A stretch of DNA of 64,000 nt, taken from positions 320 through 64,319 of the forward strand of contig JABFSE010000016.1 of the NCBI GenBank assembly GCA_013140765.1. Reading direction: 5' to 3'. Positions 6,734 through 38,872 of this stretch are shown piece after piece. Below the pieces are notes generated by a model that was not told the origin of the DNA, made no database searches, and worked only from the letters and a program-made list of their open reading frames with translations. The position numbers and the translations under genes were made by a program. Position 1 is the first letter of the stretch. The number at the start of each line of letters is the position of its first letter. The stretch comes from Sulfuriferula sp. Lineage in GTDB: Bacteria; Pseudomonadota; Gammaproteobacteria; Burkholderiales; Sulfuriferulaceae.

Positions 6734-7492
6734 ATGCAAGATGCTGACCTGCTCCGCTATAGCCGCCATATCCTGCTACACGATATAGGCATAGCAGGTC
6801 AGCAAGCGATACTGGATGCGCGTGTATTGATAGTGGGCGCAGGTGGGCTGGGATCGCCTATCGCCCTCTACCTCGCCGCCAGCGGGGTCGGTTACATCAG
6901 CATTGCCGATAACGATACGGTCGATGTCAGCAATTTACAACGCCAAATCATACACCCAGATGAATCTGTGGGGCTAAACAAAGCGCAATCCGCCGCCGCT
7001 ACATTGCAACACCTTAACCCGCATGTACAAATCAATGCCATTAGCGCACGTTTATCGGGTGATGCGTTGGCACTGCAAGTTGCCAGTCATGACATTGTCA
7101 TAGACGCAACTGACAATTTCGCCACTCGTCATGCCATCAATCGTGCCTGCGTTATACATCGCAAGCCACTGGTTTCAGGCGCGGCGGTACGTTTTGACGG
7201 CCAAGTAACGGTATTTGATTTACGCACCGAGCACAGCCCTTGCTACCACTGCCTGTACCCAGATAACGGTGCGGAAGATGAAATCCGATGTACTGAAAAT
7301 GGCGTTTTTTCACCGCTAGTCGGCATCATCGGCGCAACCCAAGCCGCCGAGGCTCTCAAACTTATTAGCAACATAGGTACTAGCCTGAACGGGCGGCTAC
7401 TATTATTAGACGCGTTCGATATGCAATGGCGTAGCATCAAGCTCAAACGTGACCCGCAGTGCGCCGTGTGCGGAACCACGACCATCATTTAG
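6734..7492 (+). CDS. moeB: MoeB/ThiF-family adenylyltransferase
   Basis: RYSRHILL, GAGGLGS, DVSNLQRQ and two CxxC motifs (CYHC, CAVC). Confidence 0.88.
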   Translation: MQDADLLRYSRHILLHDIGIAGQQAILDARVLIVGAGGLGSPIALYLAASGVGYISIADNDTVDVSNLQRQIIHPDESVGLNKAQSAAATLQHLNPHVQINAISARLSGDALALQVASHDIVIDATDNFATRHAINRACVIHRKPLVSGAAVRFDGQVTVFDLRTEHSPCYHCLYPDNGAEDEIRCTENGVFSPLVGIIGATQAAEALKLISNIGTSLNGRLLLLDAFDMQWRSIKLKRDPQCAVCGTTTII

Positions 7493-32961: not shown

Positions 32962-33002
32962 AAAAAAGCACGCTGACAGCGCATACTGTCAGCGTGCTTT
33001 TT
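32962..33002. terminator. Bidirectional intrinsic terminator
   Basis: AAAAAAGCACGCTGACAG-CGCATA-CTGTCAGCGTGCTTTTT. Confidence 0.9.
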
Positions 33003-33012
33003 GTATAGCGCA

Positions 33013-35253
33013 TTAACCTACATGGCAATATCCACGCGCCAGCATAATCGCGTACTCATCGGCAGGCACTGGTCGGCTATAGTAATAGCCTTGTAACACA
33101 TCACAACCGTATTTCAATAAGAAATCACGTTGCTGATAGTTTTCTACGCCTTCGGCTACCACCGACAAATTCATCGCATGGGCTAATCGTATTGTTGCCG
33201 TCACTATCGCGGCGGCATCGTCACCGTCATGCTCTAAATCTTGGGTAAAAGAACGATCTATTTTTACCGCATCAATCGGAAAACGCTTCAAATAACTCAA
33301 GCTCGAATAACCCGTACCGAAGTCATCAATAGAAATATAGATTCCCCGTTGCTTCAGCGCAGTCAATGTATCCACCGTTAATTGGGCGTTACTCATGGCG
33401 ACACTTTCCGTTATTTCCAGCTCTAGCAAATTCGCAGGAATTTTCGTGTCATCCAATACCTTATCTATCATCAATAACAAATCTGGCTGTAAAAATTGAC
33501 GCATGGATAAATTCACCGCCACTCTTTGCACAAATAAACCCTGCTCACGCCAACGCTGCATTTGTTCACAGGCTACCCGCAATGTCCACGCACCCACCGG
33601 CAATATCAAACCTATGGATTCCAACACACCGATGAATTTATCAGGCTCGACCAAGCCTTTAGTTGGATGTCGCCAACGTATCAATGCCTCACAACCCACA
33701 ATACGCTCGCTGTTCGTGCTCACCTTAGGCTGATAATATAATTCAAACTGCCCCAACGACAACGCCAAGCGCAATGCATTTTCCAACCGTAGTTGCAGTT
33801 TAGCGTTAATATCCATACTACTATTAAAGAACATAAAACCAGCATTATTCCGCTTTGCCCTATACATCGCCGTATCTGCCTGACGCATCAATTCTTGCGC
33901 CACATTCGTGCGGCTAGATTTACTCAGCTGTTGCGTCACCGTTGCGTTTAATACTGCAATCCCGATACTGCCAGAGACCACATATTCATGCCCATGCAAA
34001 TTAACAGGCGCACGCATCGTATCCAGAATTTTTTGGGCAATAGCCGCAGCCGCATCCCGCGCTTGCAAGCCTGAAATCAATACGGTAAATTCATCCCCAC
34101 CTAAACGCGCAACAAAATCCTCACTACGCACGCTTTTTTTAATGCGCTGGGCAAACTCCTGCAATACCAAATCACCCATATCGTGACCCAAGGTATCGTT
34201 AATGTTCTTGAATCTATCTAAATCCATAAACAACAAAGCAATATCATGCCCATTGCGCTGCGTTACCTCAGCCATTTTTTCTAATTGCGTCAATAACGAA
34301 TTACGGTTAAGCAGACCTGTTAAGCCATCGTGATAAGCTATATCCAAATAACGCTGTTCAGCATGACCATGTTCGGCTAATGCTGCCGCGATTAAAAAAC
34401 CAGGCACGCTGATAATGACCAACACCGTTTGCAAATGCGCAACCTCAGTGTAAGGTATCGCCATTCCCAGCCACCTCGCCTCGCCCAATGTCAAGGCAAC
34501 AGCAATAGAGGCCGACGTTAATACCGTCATTGCCACGCCAAAACCACCTAAACGCAACGCCGCCCACACCACGAATGGAAATAATAAATGAAACTGCGGA
34601 TCAAAATTACGTAGCCCATACCACTGCAAATGCGGCAACACCACGACCAATATCATCAACAACAATAACAACATTGTTTCCGTAATTTGTTCACGCGTAG
34701 GCCTAGCCGCATAACAGGCATAAAACAGCATAATGGCGGGCGCAACCACTAAATTACCCACCATATCACCCAACCACCACACACCTAACGCGCTATATCC
34801 ACTTGAACTCGGCATATCGCCACTCACAATTAGCGCGACCACGCCTATGCCAGCAGCTAACAAGGCAGCCGCAGGTGCCGCCAGCATAGTCAGCTTAACC
34901 ACATCACTGATAGTATCTAATTGCGGACGAAACGTTTTATAGCTATTCAATAACAACCAAGCCAGCAAAGCAGCTAGGCTATCACCCACACCAAAAATAC
35001 TCGCCACGGGCAACGATAATGTAGCCACATTAGCCAGTAATTCACCGACAAAAATACCAGGCCAATAACGCCGCCCAAACAACACCAGCACCGCAATACT
35101 CGCACCACTGGCAGGCCAAATAGCACTGACATTGCCATGCACAAAAGGCGCTATCCACAAACCAAATTTTGCCAAACCTAGGTTAATTAGCGCAAACGCA
35201 ACCACCCCCCACCAATAGCGAGGCTGATGCAAATAGGCTGGTAAGCGCATCAT
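33013..35253 (-). CDS. MASE1-GGDEF-EAL c-di-GMP enzyme
   Basis: MASE1-like SAIWPASG...WPG membrane region, GGDEF with RxxD I-site (RSED), EAL and DDFGTGYSS intact. Start 35253 or 35250 (track 35265). Confidence 0.92.
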   Translation of the reverse strand: MMRLPAYLHQPRYWWGVVAFALINLGLAKFGLWIAPFVHGNVSAIWPASGASIAVLVLFGRRYWPGIFVGELLANVATLSLPVASIFGVGDSLAALLAWLLLNSYKTFRPQLDTISDVVKLTMLAAPAAALLAAGIGVVALIVSGDMPSSSGYSALGVWWLGDMVGNLVVAPAIMLFYACYAARPTREQITETMLLLLLMILVVVLPHLQWYGLRNFDPQFHLLFPFVVWAALRLGGFGVAMTVLTSASIAVALTLGEARWLGMAIPYTEVAHLQTVLVIISVPGFLIAAALAEHGHAEQRYLDIAYHDGLTGLLNRNSLLTQLEKMAEVTQRNGHDIALLFMDLDRFKNINDTLGHDMGDLVLQEFAQRIKKSVRSEDFVARLGGDEFTVLISGLQARDAAAAIAQKILDTMRAPVNLHGHEYVVSGSIGIAVLNATVTQQLSKSSRTNVAQELMRQADTAMYRAKRNNAGFMFFNSSMDINAKLQLRLENALRLALSLGQFELYYQPKVSTNSERIVGCEALIRWRHPTKGLVEPDKFIGVLESIGLILPVGAWTLRVACEQMQRWREQGLFVQRVAVNLSMRQFLQPDLLLMIDKVLDDTKIPANLLELEITESVAMSNAQLTVDTLTALKQRGIYISIDDFGTGYSSLSYLKRFPIDAVKIDRSFTQDLEHDGDDAAAIVTATIRLAHAMNLSVVAEGVENYQQRDFLLKYGCDVLQGYYYSRPVPADEYAIMLARGYCHVG

Positions 35254-35265
35254 TGCCAATATCAA

Positions 35266-35520
35266 CTAAGCAACATCGGCCTGTGCAATATGCGCCTGCA
35301 CTGCACTTAACGCATCTTGCAAAGTATCTTCACTCAATTCATTCAGCGACTCAGCCAATACTTCAGCCGCATTCAGGCTGGTTTCTGGCAATTTCGCACT
35401 GTCCATTTCAGCGACGAATACTGCCGCCGCACCGCTCACGCGTAGCAAACTATCGCGCTCGCGCATTAACATTTCAACCTCGTTACGCAGCATTGCAACT
35501 TCTTGTTGTGTTTGTGGCAT
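35266..35520 (-). CDS. Hypothetical acidic helical protein, 84 aa
   Basis: AAGGA RBS and tight spacing to both neighbours. No family recognised. Confidence 0.75.
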   Translation of the reverse strand: MPQTQQEVAMLRNEVEMLMRERDSLLRVSGAAAVFVAEMDSAKLPETSLNAAEVLAESLNELSEDTLQDALSAVQAHIAQADVA

Positions 35521-35538: not shown

Positions 35539-36654
35539 TCAGGTAAATAAAGTTAATACGCCCGTATAACCATACAAGCGATTATGTGAAATCTCGCCAT
35601 TGGCAAAGAACCCGACCAAGGGCACATCGCCCAAGACTTGTTGTATCAAGGCTAATTCGGCAGACTTAGCACCGAATAAACTTTCGCCCCGACCCAAGCA
35701 TGAATAATACACCGCACCACGTGGTCGTGCTGTTAAACGTGACTGCACGTCTGCCAGCATCGCTAACATATCCGCCTCTGCCGCAACCGCATCTCGTCGG
35801 CAAAACAACACCTCGGCCGCAGGTGGTATCACCTCACTAATCGCCACCAATCTATCCGTGGTATCCGCGCCGATTAAATTACGCACCAAATAATCACGAC
35901 TATCACAACCGGGGATGCTCAACGCCGCAAAAATATAACCCGCCGCACGACTCAAATCACGCGACAAAATCTCACCTATATCTTCGTACAACACATCTAA
36001 TGCAGGACGACCATCTAGCGTAATCAATATATTTTCCTGACTAGCCGTGACAACATGACGCGGGCCTATCGGCGTAACCCCTTGCGTCAAGCGAGTCACC
36101 ACGGCGACCGCCTCAGTAAACATCACCCCAGACAAGCCACCATGCACCACCTCATCCGCCACCTGCAACGACTGAAACCGCGAGCTACTTATACCACCCG
36201 TAATAAACCCAGTTACCATGCCCGCCGCTGTCGCTGTAATCAACTCAGGAATCTCGGCATTACGCGCATCGCCATGCACCAACGCGTAATAGGCAGGCTG
36301 TCCATGCACGGTAAATCCATCCAAATCTACAGCGACGCGATCCTCCTCCGTGACGGGCACAAATACCCGAAACGCATGTTCAGGAAATTCGCCCAACATC
36401 ACCACGACCGCCGATTCATCGAGATACTCATGCCCCGTCACGCACACGCCTATCCCTACCGAACCGACCCAATGCGCGACACCAGTCTGCTCACGCAACT
36501 GTGCCAGCATATCGCTCAAGCGATTCGCGTATAAATCAGTCACATAAATAAAGCCCAGATTTGCCGCCGCCGACACAGGTTGCAATTGCCGCACGCAATC
36601 CTGCACCGCCTCCATCCATTGCCCGATATTTGAGTGCGCATAGCCGAATGCCAT
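35539..36654 (-). CDS. FIST-N/FIST-C domain sensory protein
   Basis: GSVGIGVC, GGISS, TQGVTPIG, DYLVRNLIG, YYSCLGRG, GFFANGEI. Start MAFG at 36654. Confidence 0.88.
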   Translation of the reverse strand: MAFGYAHSNIGQWMEAVQDCVRQLQPVSAAANLGFIYVTDLYANRLSDMLAQLREQTGVAHWVGSVGIGVCVTGHEYLDESAVVVMLGEFPEHAFRVFVPVTEEDRVAVDLDGFTVHGQPAYYALVHGDARNAEIPELITATAAGMVTGFITGGISSSRFQSLQVADEVVHGGLSGVMFTEAVAVVTRLTQGVTPIGPRHVVTASQENILITLDGRPALDVLYEDIGEILSRDLSRAAGYIFAALSIPGCDSRDYLVRNLIGADTTDRLVAISEVIPPAAEVLFCRRDAVAAEADMLAMLADVQSRLTARPRGAVYYSCLGRGESLFGAKSAELALIQQVLGDVPLVGFFANGEISHNRLYGYTGVLTLFT

Positions 36655-36656
36655 AT

Positions 36657-37331
36657 TTATGCCGTCCTTGTCCAATTCGCATCTAACACCTTACGCATAC
36701 GCGCCGCCGCTTGCGGGCTGACACCAGGCACTTGCGCCAAGGTCTCAACATCTGCCGCAAACACGGCCGCCGCACCACCCAAATGATTCAACAATGCCTT
36801 TGCCATCGCCTCATTCACACCAGGCAAACCTTCGACCAAATAACGCTGACCATTCATAGGGTCAAACGGCTTACCATTACGCATCACCACAGGATGCCCC
36901 ATGCCGTGCTGTGCCTGATGCGCCATGGTATAAACAATTTCAGCGGTAAAGCCTGCACTAGGGCTAGGCACCAAAGGCACGCCTTGCATCACCGTCAACC
37001 ACGCGATTGCCTCGCGTATTGCCATCGGGTCAGTATGAAAACGCCCACCATAAATATCGCCTTCGACAATATAAATCACTTGGTCATAACTGGATTTGAG
37101 CTTGCCGACCTCGCTCATTAAACGCTTATCCATAATCGCCAAACTAAAATCTGTCGCCGACTTACGCTCCACCACCACGCCAGTCCCTAAATCGTAATCA
37201 CCACTATCCAACTCCGCCAACTGCAATGACAAACCCTTACAACTAGCAGGATAATCATGCCAATGTTGCAACACTGCCGATTTTTGTTCACGCGGATGAT
37301 AAGTAATCGTTGTTATTGCATCAGCCATCAT
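36657..37331 (-). CDS. ERCC4/XPF-type nuclease with tandem helix-hairpin-helix domain
   Basis: GDY-x8-ERKSATD catalytic motif, YIVEG, and C-terminal LPGV...VPGV (HhH)2. Confidence 0.85.
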   Translation of the reverse strand: MMADAITTITYHPREQKSAVLQHWHDYPASCKGLSLQLAELDSGDYDLGTGVVVERKSATDFSLAIMDKRLMSEVGKLKSSYDQVIYIVEGDIYGGRFHTDPMAIREAIAWLTVMQGVPLVPSPSAGFTAEIVYTMAHQAQHGMGHPVVMRNGKPFDPMNGQRYLVEGLPGVNEAMAKALLNHLGGAAAVFAADVETLAQVPGVSPQAAARMRKVLDANWTRTA

Positions 37332-37380
37332 CTATATACTCATTATTAAGTTAAAATTTCATTTTACGGAGTTACCCGCC

Positions 37381-37752
37381 ATGCGCCTATCGCTATTTAT
37401 ATTTACCCTGTTATCCATTAACGCACTCGCCGACACCGACCTCACAGGTACGCCTGTAGAATGGCGAGGTCAAATCACCCAACAATACCGCGCAGGCGAC
37501 GACACCTGCTTTGAATTAACGCGTAACACCCAACCACGCAACTTCACCACCTGCGTCTATGGCTATTATGATGCCACGCAATACGGCGCAGGCAAATGGT
37601 TAAACGTTGCGGGCTTATTAGCCGCCAACAGCACCCGCATTAGCGCGGCGCAAATCACCCTCACCGACGCACCATTACCCGCATACAGAGCCCCCATGGG
37701 CTATGGTTACCCACGTTATTACCAATACGACCCATTCTATCGCTATTACTAA
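37381..37752 (+). CDS. Slp-like exported protein
   Basis: Signal peptide, VEWRGQI...TCFE, GYYDATQYGAGKWLNVAG, aromatic Y/P-rich tail. No lipobox Cys. Confidence 0.5.
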   Translation: MRLSLFIFTLLSINALADTDLTGTPVEWRGQITQQYRAGDDTCFELTRNTQPRNFTTCVYGYYDATQYGAGKWLNVAGLLAANSTRISAAQITLTDAPLPAYRAPMGYGYPRYYQYDPFYRYY

Positions 37753-37804
37753 TCCAGCACATTTGCGGTATCCTTAGCCGTTTGTTAATACACGTTTGCA
37801 CATC

Positions 37805-38872
37805 ATGGGATTATTCGATTTTTTAGGCTTTAACAAATTACCTGCTGGCGTTACCAATGCCACCTTAGTCGTTACCGATGCCGCCACTTTGGCACGCGCC
37901 GAACAATTTATCAACGCCTTGCAAAATAAGTTTCGCAACGTCGCCATCGCACTGACAGACGCAACCGCCACGCCGCCTGCGCTACCGCACTTACAACTGC
38001 CAGACGACCTCACCGCCGCCGCACAGCGCATCACCAAATCGCAACCGCAACGGCTCATCATATTAGGCTTGGGTGAACAACATCTGCCCCTAGCACAGGC
38101 CGCAACGTGCCCACGCTACTGGCTCAACGCACGTGATGCCAATATCGCCCTAGCGGGCTGTGCGCTCATCAGCACCAGCAATGCTGATACACACATTACA
38201 GGCGCATTAGCCTTAGGCGATGCGTTGGTCGATTTAACCAGCTTGCCACACATCGCCAGCGATACCGAGATTTGCCTGCGCTTCAAAGAACAACACGAAA
38301 GCGAGCGTTGGCTAGGCTATTTTGCCGCCACAGGCGAAGACGAAGAAGATACCGCCTACGCCCTCTTCAGCCGCGCCATACGCCACAAAATGGGCATGAT
38401 GCTACTCGCCCCACGCGATCCAGCACGTTGCGAACCCGTCTATCGCGAATCCATACGCTACCGCTTGCAAACCATACGCCATGCCCGCTTTTCCACCTCA
38501 TTCGTCCCCTTAAAAACCCGCGTTTACTACATAGAACACGCCGAGCCTATTGCCAGCTTATACGGCTGTGTTGATTTCGTCGTCGTCGGCGCAACACTCA
38601 ACCAAAACGCCAAAAACACGCCCGACATCATCACCCCCATCCTCCATAACCGCCCCGTCATCGTCGGCACAGCACACCGTGAAAACCCACTACTCGCCGC
38701 CGCCATTACCGCAGGTATCGTTTGGGCGGGTGAAGATAACGAACAAATTTTCACCCACATCAAAACCATCATCGACACCCCAGAGCTAGGACAACAACGT
38801 GCCGAAAAAGCGCGTGCATGGCTAAATTTACAAGTCGGTGCAATGACGCGCGTGCTGGAAAAAATCACCTGA
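37805..38872 (+). CDS. Divergent WaaA/KdtA (Kdo transferase)-like glycosyltransferase
   Basis: Aligns by eye to WaaA: WLNAR, ATGEDEE, LLAPRDPAR, LYGCVDFVVVGATL, PVIVG, C-terminal GAMTRVL. Confidence 0.6.
   Translation: MGLFDFLGFNKLPAGVTNATLVVTDAATLARAEQFINALQNKFRNVAIALTDATATPPALPHLQLPDDLTAAAQRITKSQPQRLIILGLGEQHLPLAQAATCPRYWLNARDANIALAGCALISTSNADTHITGALALGDALVDLTSLPHIASDTEICLRFKEQHESERWLGYFAATGEDEEDTAYALFSRAIRHKMGMMLLAPRDPARCEPVYRESIRYRLQTIRHARFSTSFVPLKTRVYYIEHAEPIASLYGCVDFVVVGATLNQNAKNTPDIITPILHNRPVIVGTAHRENPLLAAAITAGIVWAGEDNEQIFTHIKTIIDTPELGQQRAEKARAWLNLQVGAMTRVLEKIT

Follow-up and report, generated by a model that had tools for sequence, protein, structure and literature searches.

A short bacterial XPF-family protein of Sulfuriferula with an invariant Asp-to-His change in its ERCC4 active site

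We describe a gene of the XPF nuclease family in a sulfur-oxidising bacterium, located in a stretch of 64,000 nucleotides (nt) from Sulfuriferula sp. (assembly GCA_013140765.1, contig JABFSE010000016.1, positions 320-64,319 of the forward strand). This stretch was analysed as a whole and is called the window below, all coordinates being relative to it. The gene lies on the minus strand at 36657..37331 and encodes a protein of 224 amino acids (aa) with an ERCC4 nuclease domain and an (HhH)2 domain. The protein belongs to the ERCC4/XPF family by all sequence and fold criteria but one, the first catalytic Asp, which is replaced by a His (His12) throughout the Sulfuriferula clade, hereafter the His clade. 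XPF-family nucleases are central to nucleotide excision repair, interstrand-crosslink repair and fork processing in eukaryotes, and to fork and flap processing in archaea, while bacteria are the textbook non-users of XPF and rely on UvrABC, RuvC and RecG instead. The gene is nonetheless inherited vertically in Sulfuriferula as part of the genus core, and the bacterial branch of the family to which it belongs, though patchy, is real. We consider it reasonably probable that its product is an active homodimeric endonuclease of the short XPF type, structure-specific and with a remodelled, His-containing metal site, which would work in addition to UvrABC and RuvC.

Domain architecture and predicted structure

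The gene had been singled out in an earlier reading of the window's letters (the original prediction) as a 224-aa open reading frame (ORF) with a GDY...ERKxxxD motif and (HhH)2. All four motif readings proved right in the DNA, and the domain scores are far beyond chance. Two ATGs stand side by side at the gene start (MMAD...) and the orthologues begin MTD, hence the second ATG may be the true start, which would give a protein of 223 aa. The ERCC4 nuclease domain covers residues 13-136 (36924..37295, minus strand), as delimited by the envelope of the Pfam ERCC4 model (PF02732). A search with this hidden Markov model (HMM), proposed as a check in the original prediction, gave a match with an E-value of 4e-19 and 69.3 bits against a cut-off of 24, extending over profile positions 3-140 of 140. 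The (HhH)2 domain, residues 167-214 (36690..36833, minus strand), was recognised by HHH_5 (E-value 2.6e-9, 37.9 bits against a cut-off of 27) and by the Hef HhH domain 1x2i, matched at 3.8e-8 in a sequence search of the PDB. The best matches in that search were ApeXPF (2bhn/2bgw, ~5e-19 to 1e-18) and the Hef nuclease domain (1j22, 6e-19).

An AlphaFold2 (AF2) model of the single chain was built from a 25-sequence alignment and reached a mean predicted local distance difference test score (pLDDT) of 90.8. Its sole low-confidence part is the inter-domain linker, the block of residues 151-160 having a pLDDT of 60, and five helices are modelled in residues 158-216. When the model was compared with the PDB using Foldseek, the top 50 matches were all XPF, Hef, ERCC1, FANCM/FAAP24 or MUS81/EME structures. 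The top full-length matches were to ApeXPF (2bgw/2bhn, E-value 1.5e-16), and the Hef nuclease domain (1j22) superposed on the model with a template modelling (TM) score of 0.93 and a root mean square deviation of 1.3 Å at 37% identity. The ERCC4 fold on which the original prediction depended is present, the model matching both ApeXPF and Hef, and the likeness to crenarchaeal XPF that it had claimed is borne out by the architecture (nuclease plus (HhH)2 in ~220 aa) and by 2bgw/2bhn as the best full-length structural matches.

The NCBIfam equivalog models place the protein less closely. The Hef model (NF010337) gave the best NCBIfam alignment, aligned at Hef positions 572-780 of 781, with 140 bits against a cut-off of 610, and the model for archaeal Xpf, a 3'-flap repair endonuclease (NF040956), gave 76 bits against a cut-off of 300. 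By NCBIfam criteria the protein is neither an orthologue of crenarchaeal XPF nor an orthologue of Hef. Together with the lack of a conserved C-terminal peptide of the clamp or PCNA type (see below), these scores make it a member of the XPF family and not a strict orthologue of crenarchaeal XPF. Public homologues carry the label "ERCC4 domain-containing protein [Sulfuriferula sp.]", and the same label is found in Burkholderiales metagenome-assembled genomes (MAGs), owing to automatic NCBI annotation of the COG1948 type.

The active site and its His12 substitution

The GDXn-(V/I)ERKX3D catalytic signature is present in the protein. G44-D45-Y46 (GDY) is encoded at 37194..37202 and is followed by D47, which is specific to the clade, while E55-R56-K57-S-A-T-D61 (ERKx3D), preceded by V54, is encoded at 37149..37169, both on the minus strand. 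In the 25-sequence alignment E15, G44, D45, E55, R56, K57, D61, E90 and G91 are invariant; Y46 is near-invariant and is replaced by Phe in L032 and P0035. The N-terminal motif V/I-D-x-R-E lacks its acidic metal ligand and has His12 in its place, with R14 and E15 retained. The His12 codon, CAT, lies at 37296..37298 (minus strand) within tat cat ccg cgt gaa, which encodes Y-H-P-R-E.

To place this change in the family, motif columns were tabulated over the 150 best family representatives. Position 12 was Asp in 132 of them, His in three, Ser in three and Asn in one, with a gap in 11, and the remaining catalytic positions were kept in 136-144 of the 150 (D45 in 143, the ERKx3D residues in at least 136). 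Of the three deviations listed in the original prediction, HPRE for D-x-RE, confirmed in the DNA, is the only truly unusual one. Two of the three His cases belong to the Sulfuriferula clade. The third, P0127, was considered as an independent occurrence of His12 in another active enzyme and rejected, as this degenerate sequence also has Q in place of E15 and I-K in place of E55-R56.

Among all sequences collected, 46 carry His12, and all 46 keep R14, E15, D45, E55, R56, K57 and D61, the catalytic signature being invariant across them. The nearest relatives without His12 (L058 and P0030-P0035, 39-55% identical) carry Asp at this position; the change from Asp to His takes one G-to-C transversion (GAT to CAT). 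Going by these alignments, the His clade has fixed a different, metal-capable side chain in place of an essential metal ligand while the other residues of the site stayed tightly constrained, and among bacterial members it is the only group that pairs His12 with an otherwise intact catalytic set.

The equivalent of His12 in human XPF is Asp687, and the mutational map of the human protein can be transferred by alignment. A review (PMC3488251, citing Enzlin & Scharer 2002) gives Asp687, Asp715, Lys727 and Asp731 as essential. It also attributes metal binding to Asp687, Glu690, Asp715 and Glu725, the first and third of these being the proposed metal coordinators.

Several other residues switch together with His12. 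D47 is present in 93% of the His clade and in 0% of sequences outside it; since it follows D45 by two residues within one strand, its side chain plausibly points in the same direction as that of D45. It is missing in some basal members (R in L033, A in L056), hence D47 is no prerequisite for tolerating His12. E74 is found in the His clade where Gln is common elsewhere in the family, and W24, E107, W111 and E131 switch likewise. In the linker, F156-D157-P158 is present in 100% of the His clade and in at most 14% of sequences outside it, as part of the clade-specific stretch R-N-G-K-P-F-D-P (residues 151-158, 36858..36881, minus strand) in the region of low pLDDT. The invariant K-P-F-D-P of this stretch resembles a short linear interaction motif.

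Hairpins and C-terminal tail

The original prediction also noted that the two hairpins deviate from consensus, reading GVN and GVS. Both readings are right; the first is common in the family and the second less so. Hairpin 1 (L-P-G-V-N, 36813-36821, minus strand) ends in Asn, which is unremarkable, since the terminal residue was Gly in 89, Ser in 35, Asn in nine and Asp in eight of 148 representatives. Hairpin 2 (P-G-V-S, 36717-36725, minus strand) is less common, with the terminal Gly kept in 133 of the 148. Across the family the terminal Gly has been lost in ~40% of cases for hairpin 1 and ~10% for hairpin 2. The Asp-type sisters L058 and P0031-P0034 are already without both Gly residues, hence the hairpin losses are older than the Asp-to-His change.

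Beyond a conserved RKVLDAxW, the tail of the 46 orthologues is variable and 1-6 residues long. No conserved C-terminal peptide of the PCNA- or clamp-interacting kind, such as a beta-clamp-like motif, was seen in the tails of these 46 orthologues. Crenarchaeal XPF is a homodimer with 3'-flap specificity that requires PCNA, which it binds via its last six residues (PMC2836553).

Active or catalytically dead

Four observations weigh against an active enzyme. His12 replaces the residue equivalent to Asp687, essential according to the review cited above (PMC3488251) and a proposed metal ligand, hence activity could be lost or much reduced. The catalytic motifs are clearly eroded in sister bacterial lineages (D-Y-K for E-R-K in Thiohalorhabdus, VHTRQ and VIKK in P0127), which means that non-catalytic versions do evolve in the bacterial ERCC4-HhH2 group. 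The terminal Gly is gone from both hairpins, which puts both off consensus. Finally, the tail is short and variable, whereas crenarchaeal XPF depends on PCNA through its C-terminus.

The first three of these points, and the good fit of FANCM-FAAP24 and ERCC1 to the AF2 model, are also what favours an ERCC4-(HhH)2 protein whose catalysis is lost or strongly reduced, acting as a junction binder or scaffold akin to ERCC1, FAAP24 or the C-terminal module of FANCM. Those proteins recognise branched DNA and recruit factors but do not cut. We regard such a role as rather unlikely here. The seven other catalytic residues are 100% kept in the 46 sequences, down to ~55% identity and with a ratio of non-synonymous to synonymous substitution rates (dN/dS) of ~0.05, whereas the likely true cases of catalytic loss, Thiohalorhabdus and P0127, drop several residues together. 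The invariance of His12 itself points to selection for a functional group and not to drift. The retention and constraint of the residues around a fixed His12 argue for a working but remodelled centre over a dead one.

Distribution, inheritance and selection

The genome from which the window is taken is 2.18 Mb in size, 100% complete and has one ERCC4 gene, hence any dimer must be a homodimer. By named genome records the closest relatives of the gene belong to Sulfuriferula, among them S. multivorans TTN and Sulfuriferula sp. GW1. Of 27 Sulfuriferula genomes, 25 carry the gene, in conserved synteny; the other two have a completeness of only 71% and 77%. Elsewhere in the order an ERCC4 domain was detected in two of 34 sampled families, and in the class in 23 of 400 sampled genomes (~6%). 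Strong purifying selection acts on the gene, with dN/dS of 0.045-0.051 against the nearest orthologues; against other orthologues synonymous sites were saturated.

That the family is mainly archaeal and eukaryotic, as the original prediction had stated, agrees with the control genomes, in which the ERCC4 HMM matched four of four archaea and none of ten bacteria. It agrees also with a 2012 census of PD-(D/E)XK nucleases, where ERCC4/XPF/Mus81 is listed under "Archaea & Eukaryota" with no horizontal gene transfer observed (PMC3424549). No experimental study of any bacterial ERCC4/XPF member was found in the searchable literature.

The phylogeny proposed in the original prediction was reconstructed by maximum likelihood from 55 sequences. 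The gene falls in a bacterial clade of 41 that is split from the archaeal sequences with a support of 96 in the Shimodaira-Hasegawa-like approximate likelihood ratio test (SH-aLRT), and which comprises Sulfuriferula, Acidiferrobacteraceae, Thiohalorhabdus, Variovorax, Piscinibacter, Pseudomonas nitroreducens, Aromatoleum and Chloroflexota. A small number of bacterial sequences fall outside it and cluster with the archaeal ones. The loci in this tree were retrieved by two peptide patterns, ERKSATDF or [YF]LVEGLPG[VI], which biases its sampling of the family. HMMER, run without such patterns against 1.84 billion representatives, returned 2,003 clusters in the wider family, of which the nearest 33 were all short forms, the first protein of Hef length appearing at rank 35.

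The idea of an archaeal-style XPF in a bacterium thus stands as regards architecture, but the gene is not a lone one: it is one of a sizeable clade of bacterial genes and is inherited vertically as part of the genus core. A recent import from archaea was considered and rejected, because the gene is genus-core, the GC content and composition around it are unremarkable, and a supported branch separates the bacterial clade from archaea.

Several distinct forms of the protein occur among its relatives. In Thiohalorhabdus and related Gammaproteobacteria (L065, L066, L074) D-N-A-Q stands for D-x-R-E and L-D-Y-K for V-E-R-K, and in P0114 E55 is changed to A. Judged by their motifs, these eroded sequences and P0127 are probable natural pseudo-nucleases of the bacterial XPF family. 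A Chloroflexota subclade (L067, L070, L072, L073; Anaerolineae/Anaerolineales) has Ser or Asn at the first Asp, K-R-K for E-R-K and A-D-Y for G-D-Y, a second, distinct active-site variant conserved in that group. ERCC4 proteins of 138-143 aa that consist of the nuclease alone, with the catalytic motif intact and without (HhH)2, occur in several Proteobacteria including Acidiferrobacteraceae (L035, at 6983-7414, and L037, L085, L086, L089).

Two further cases concern gene transfer. A locus of Centralia_MAG_189 ('Proteobacteria bacterium', L093) has an 839-aa Hef-like ORF, with an N-terminal extension before nuclease-HhH2, nested among archaeal sequences; this is either a mis-binned contig or a transfer of full-length Hef from an archaeon to a bacterium. 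Aromatoleum evansii KB740 (L075) and an Opitutaceae MAG (L078), from two phyla, have near-identical ERCC4-HhH2 genes (tree path ~0.09) with shared hypothetical genes around them, which suggests that a mobile island was transferred horizontally not long ago.

Gene neighbourhood

The ERCC4 gene is the first of four co-oriented genes on the minus strand. It is followed by a FIST_N/FIST_C sensor gene (35539..36675, by Pfam match), whose probable ATG at 36654 lies 2 nt past the ERCC4 stop, then by orf84 (35266..35520), whose sequence encodes an acidic (isoelectric point 4.2), coiled-coil-like protein of 84 aa, and lastly by a MASE1-GGDEF-EAL gene (33013..35265, by Pfam match). A sequence scan located a strong intrinsic-terminator-like hairpin with an 18-bp stem and a T run at 32963..33002 (minus strand), which closes the block.

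Such tight packing, with a 2-nt gap or an overlap after ERCC4 and one strong terminator, could indicate that the nuclease is tied to the FIST sensor and MASE1-GGDEF-EAL in one signalling unit that would, for instance, couple the turnover of cyclic di-GMP (c-di-GMP) to DNA damage or to the state of nucleic acids. The order ERCC4-FIST-orf84-GGDEF-EAL is indeed kept in most Sulfuriferula genomes. We find this improbable, however, as in the basal His-clade loci L032, L033, L056 and L057 orf84 comes directly after ERCC4, with no FIST or GGDEF-EAL gene, and relatives outside the genus have unrelated neighbours. The basal loci show the link to FIST and c-di-GMP to be a later insertion into an existing pair, not ancestral to the nuclease; the FIST/GGDEF-EAL linkage arose only in the genus crown.

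orf84 itself lies next to ERCC4 in all His-clade loci that reach far enough downstream, and is absent beside Asp-type copies. We examined it as a dedicated partner of the His-type nuclease and rejected this, as homologues without a nearby ERCC4 gene occur in Nitrosomonas and others. A search of 5.8 billion proteins returned homologues with 54-65% identity in Nitrosomonas and other Betaproteobacteria, and those away from ERCC4 have patatin/TerC, Trx-TPR/DUF3025/ThiF or hydrogenase maturation genes as neighbours. orf84 is hence conserved in Sulfuriferula, Nitrosomonas and other Betaproteobacteria (including L094-L100) in varied contexts, and its adjacency to ERCC4 is best read as an inherited neighbourhood. 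The protein matched no family in Pfam, NCBIfam, PHROG or PADLOC.

A defence nuclease against phages, or one belonging to a mobile element, acquired horizontally in either case, was weighed on the same loci. Some Asp-type relatives (L034, L064, L068, L075, L078, L082) do lie in island-like surroundings, among XRE regulators, transposase genes and numerous hypothetical genes, and the near-identical Aromatoleum and Opitutaceae copies point to recent transfer. Other Asp-type sisters have housekeeping contexts (xseB-ispA-dxs, a tsaB/dinG-like pair, a moeB-like gene). For the Sulfuriferula gene we judge this origin very improbable: PADLOC gave no match at the locus and PHROG only a marginal, irrelevant one, the gene is a single-copy member of the genus core with an unremarkable GC content, and its synteny with neighbouring housekeeping genes is stable.

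Upstream, a divergent gene for an Slp-like secreted protein of 123 aa (37381..37752, plus strand) holds a position that is conserved in the genus. Its start codon is separated from that of ERCC4 by 49 nt (37332-37380), hence both promoters must overlap coding or leader regions. A promoter consensus scan gave sites no more frequent than in shuffled controls and nothing convincing within 37332-37380. Further along the plus strand, a 358-aa ORF at 37796-38872 is syntenic in close relatives and has no Pfam match; only the C-terminal half of WaaA/KdtA Kdo transferase models was matched, with 51 against 438 bits, and the ORF may be a divergent or truncated glycosyltransferase.

Proposed function

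The same genome encodes canonical RuvC and UvrC, which makes the ERCC4 enzyme an addition to the repair set. The protein has the minimal form of the family, in which one ERCC4 nuclease domain of the PD-(D/E)XK type is joined by a flexible linker to an (HhH)2 domain for DNA binding at the C-terminus. In the reading we prefer, it would be an active endonuclease and, like archaeal short XPF and the Hef C-terminal module, would act as a homodimer whose paired (HhH)2 domains grip duplex DNA at the branch point. The nuclease domain would then nick the strand that bears the 3' single-stranded arm, near the junction. Judging from archaeal and eukaryotic homologues, from which activity too is extrapolated, probable substrates are 3' flaps, splayed arms and stalled or nicked forks, and the enzyme would supplement UvrABC and RuvC in handling intermediates of replication and recombination.

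At the active site, His12 would take the place of the first carboxylate ligand, with catalysis retained and the metal requirement altered. With His as a ligand, Mn2+, Fe2+ or Co2+ is favoured over Mg2+. The metal preference of the Sulfuriferula enzyme has probably moved off Mg2+, as we infer from its homologues, and the clade-specific D47 may provide a relocated carboxylate. A more far-reaching and tentative version is that of a re-wired XPF, a bacterial homodimer independent of any clamp, in which His, possibly with D47, replaces the first carboxylate and activity depends on Mn, Fe or Co, suited to metal-rich, sulfur-oxidising habitats. Were this true, the Sulfuriferula clade would provide the first functional XPF from a bacterium and an example from nature of active-site migration in the ERCC4 family.

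The family, the fold, the likely chemistry and the automatic annotation were already known; what is new is a bacterial short XPF with an invariant Asp-to-His change in its active site. A minority of bacteria (the ~6% of sampled class genomes) keep such a vertically maintained and constrained XPF beside the canonical set. The fixation of His at a position where mutation kills human XPF amounts to a natural experiment on the plasticity of the metal site in the ERCC4 family.

Comparison with known systems

The closest known systems in architecture are the crenarchaeal short XPF proteins of Aeropyrum pernix (2bgw/2bhn) and Sulfolobus, with which the Sulfuriferula protein shares the nuclease-linker-(HhH)2 order, a length of ~215-230 aa and the GDXn-ERKX3D core. 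The mechanism, that of a homodimeric 3'-flap/fork endonuclease, is presumed to be alike. The Sulfuriferula protein differs in its bacterial host, which has no PCNA, and in having no conserved C-terminal peptide resembling a PCNA-interacting peptide (PIP). It differs further in the His that stands for the first Asp, in the absence of both hairpin Gly residues, in its sequence (~24% identity) and in its place within a separate bacterial clade.

Euryarchaeal Hef (Pyrococcus furiosus, 1j22-1j25 and 1x2i) has the closest nuclease domain by both sequence and structure, but its N-terminal SF2 helicase of ~550 aa is absent from the 224-aa protein, and Hef has the canonical Asp. The eukaryotic XPF-ERCC1, MUS81-EME1 and FANCM-FAAP24 resemble the protein in fold, with ERCC4 plus (HhH)2, and in catalytic signature. 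These are, however, obligate heterodimers with a non-catalytic paralogue, far larger and dependent on eukaryote-specific recruiting partners. Compared with other bacterial ERCC4 domain-containing proteins, the Sulfuriferula clade adds His12, D47, E74 and the KPFDP linker motif.

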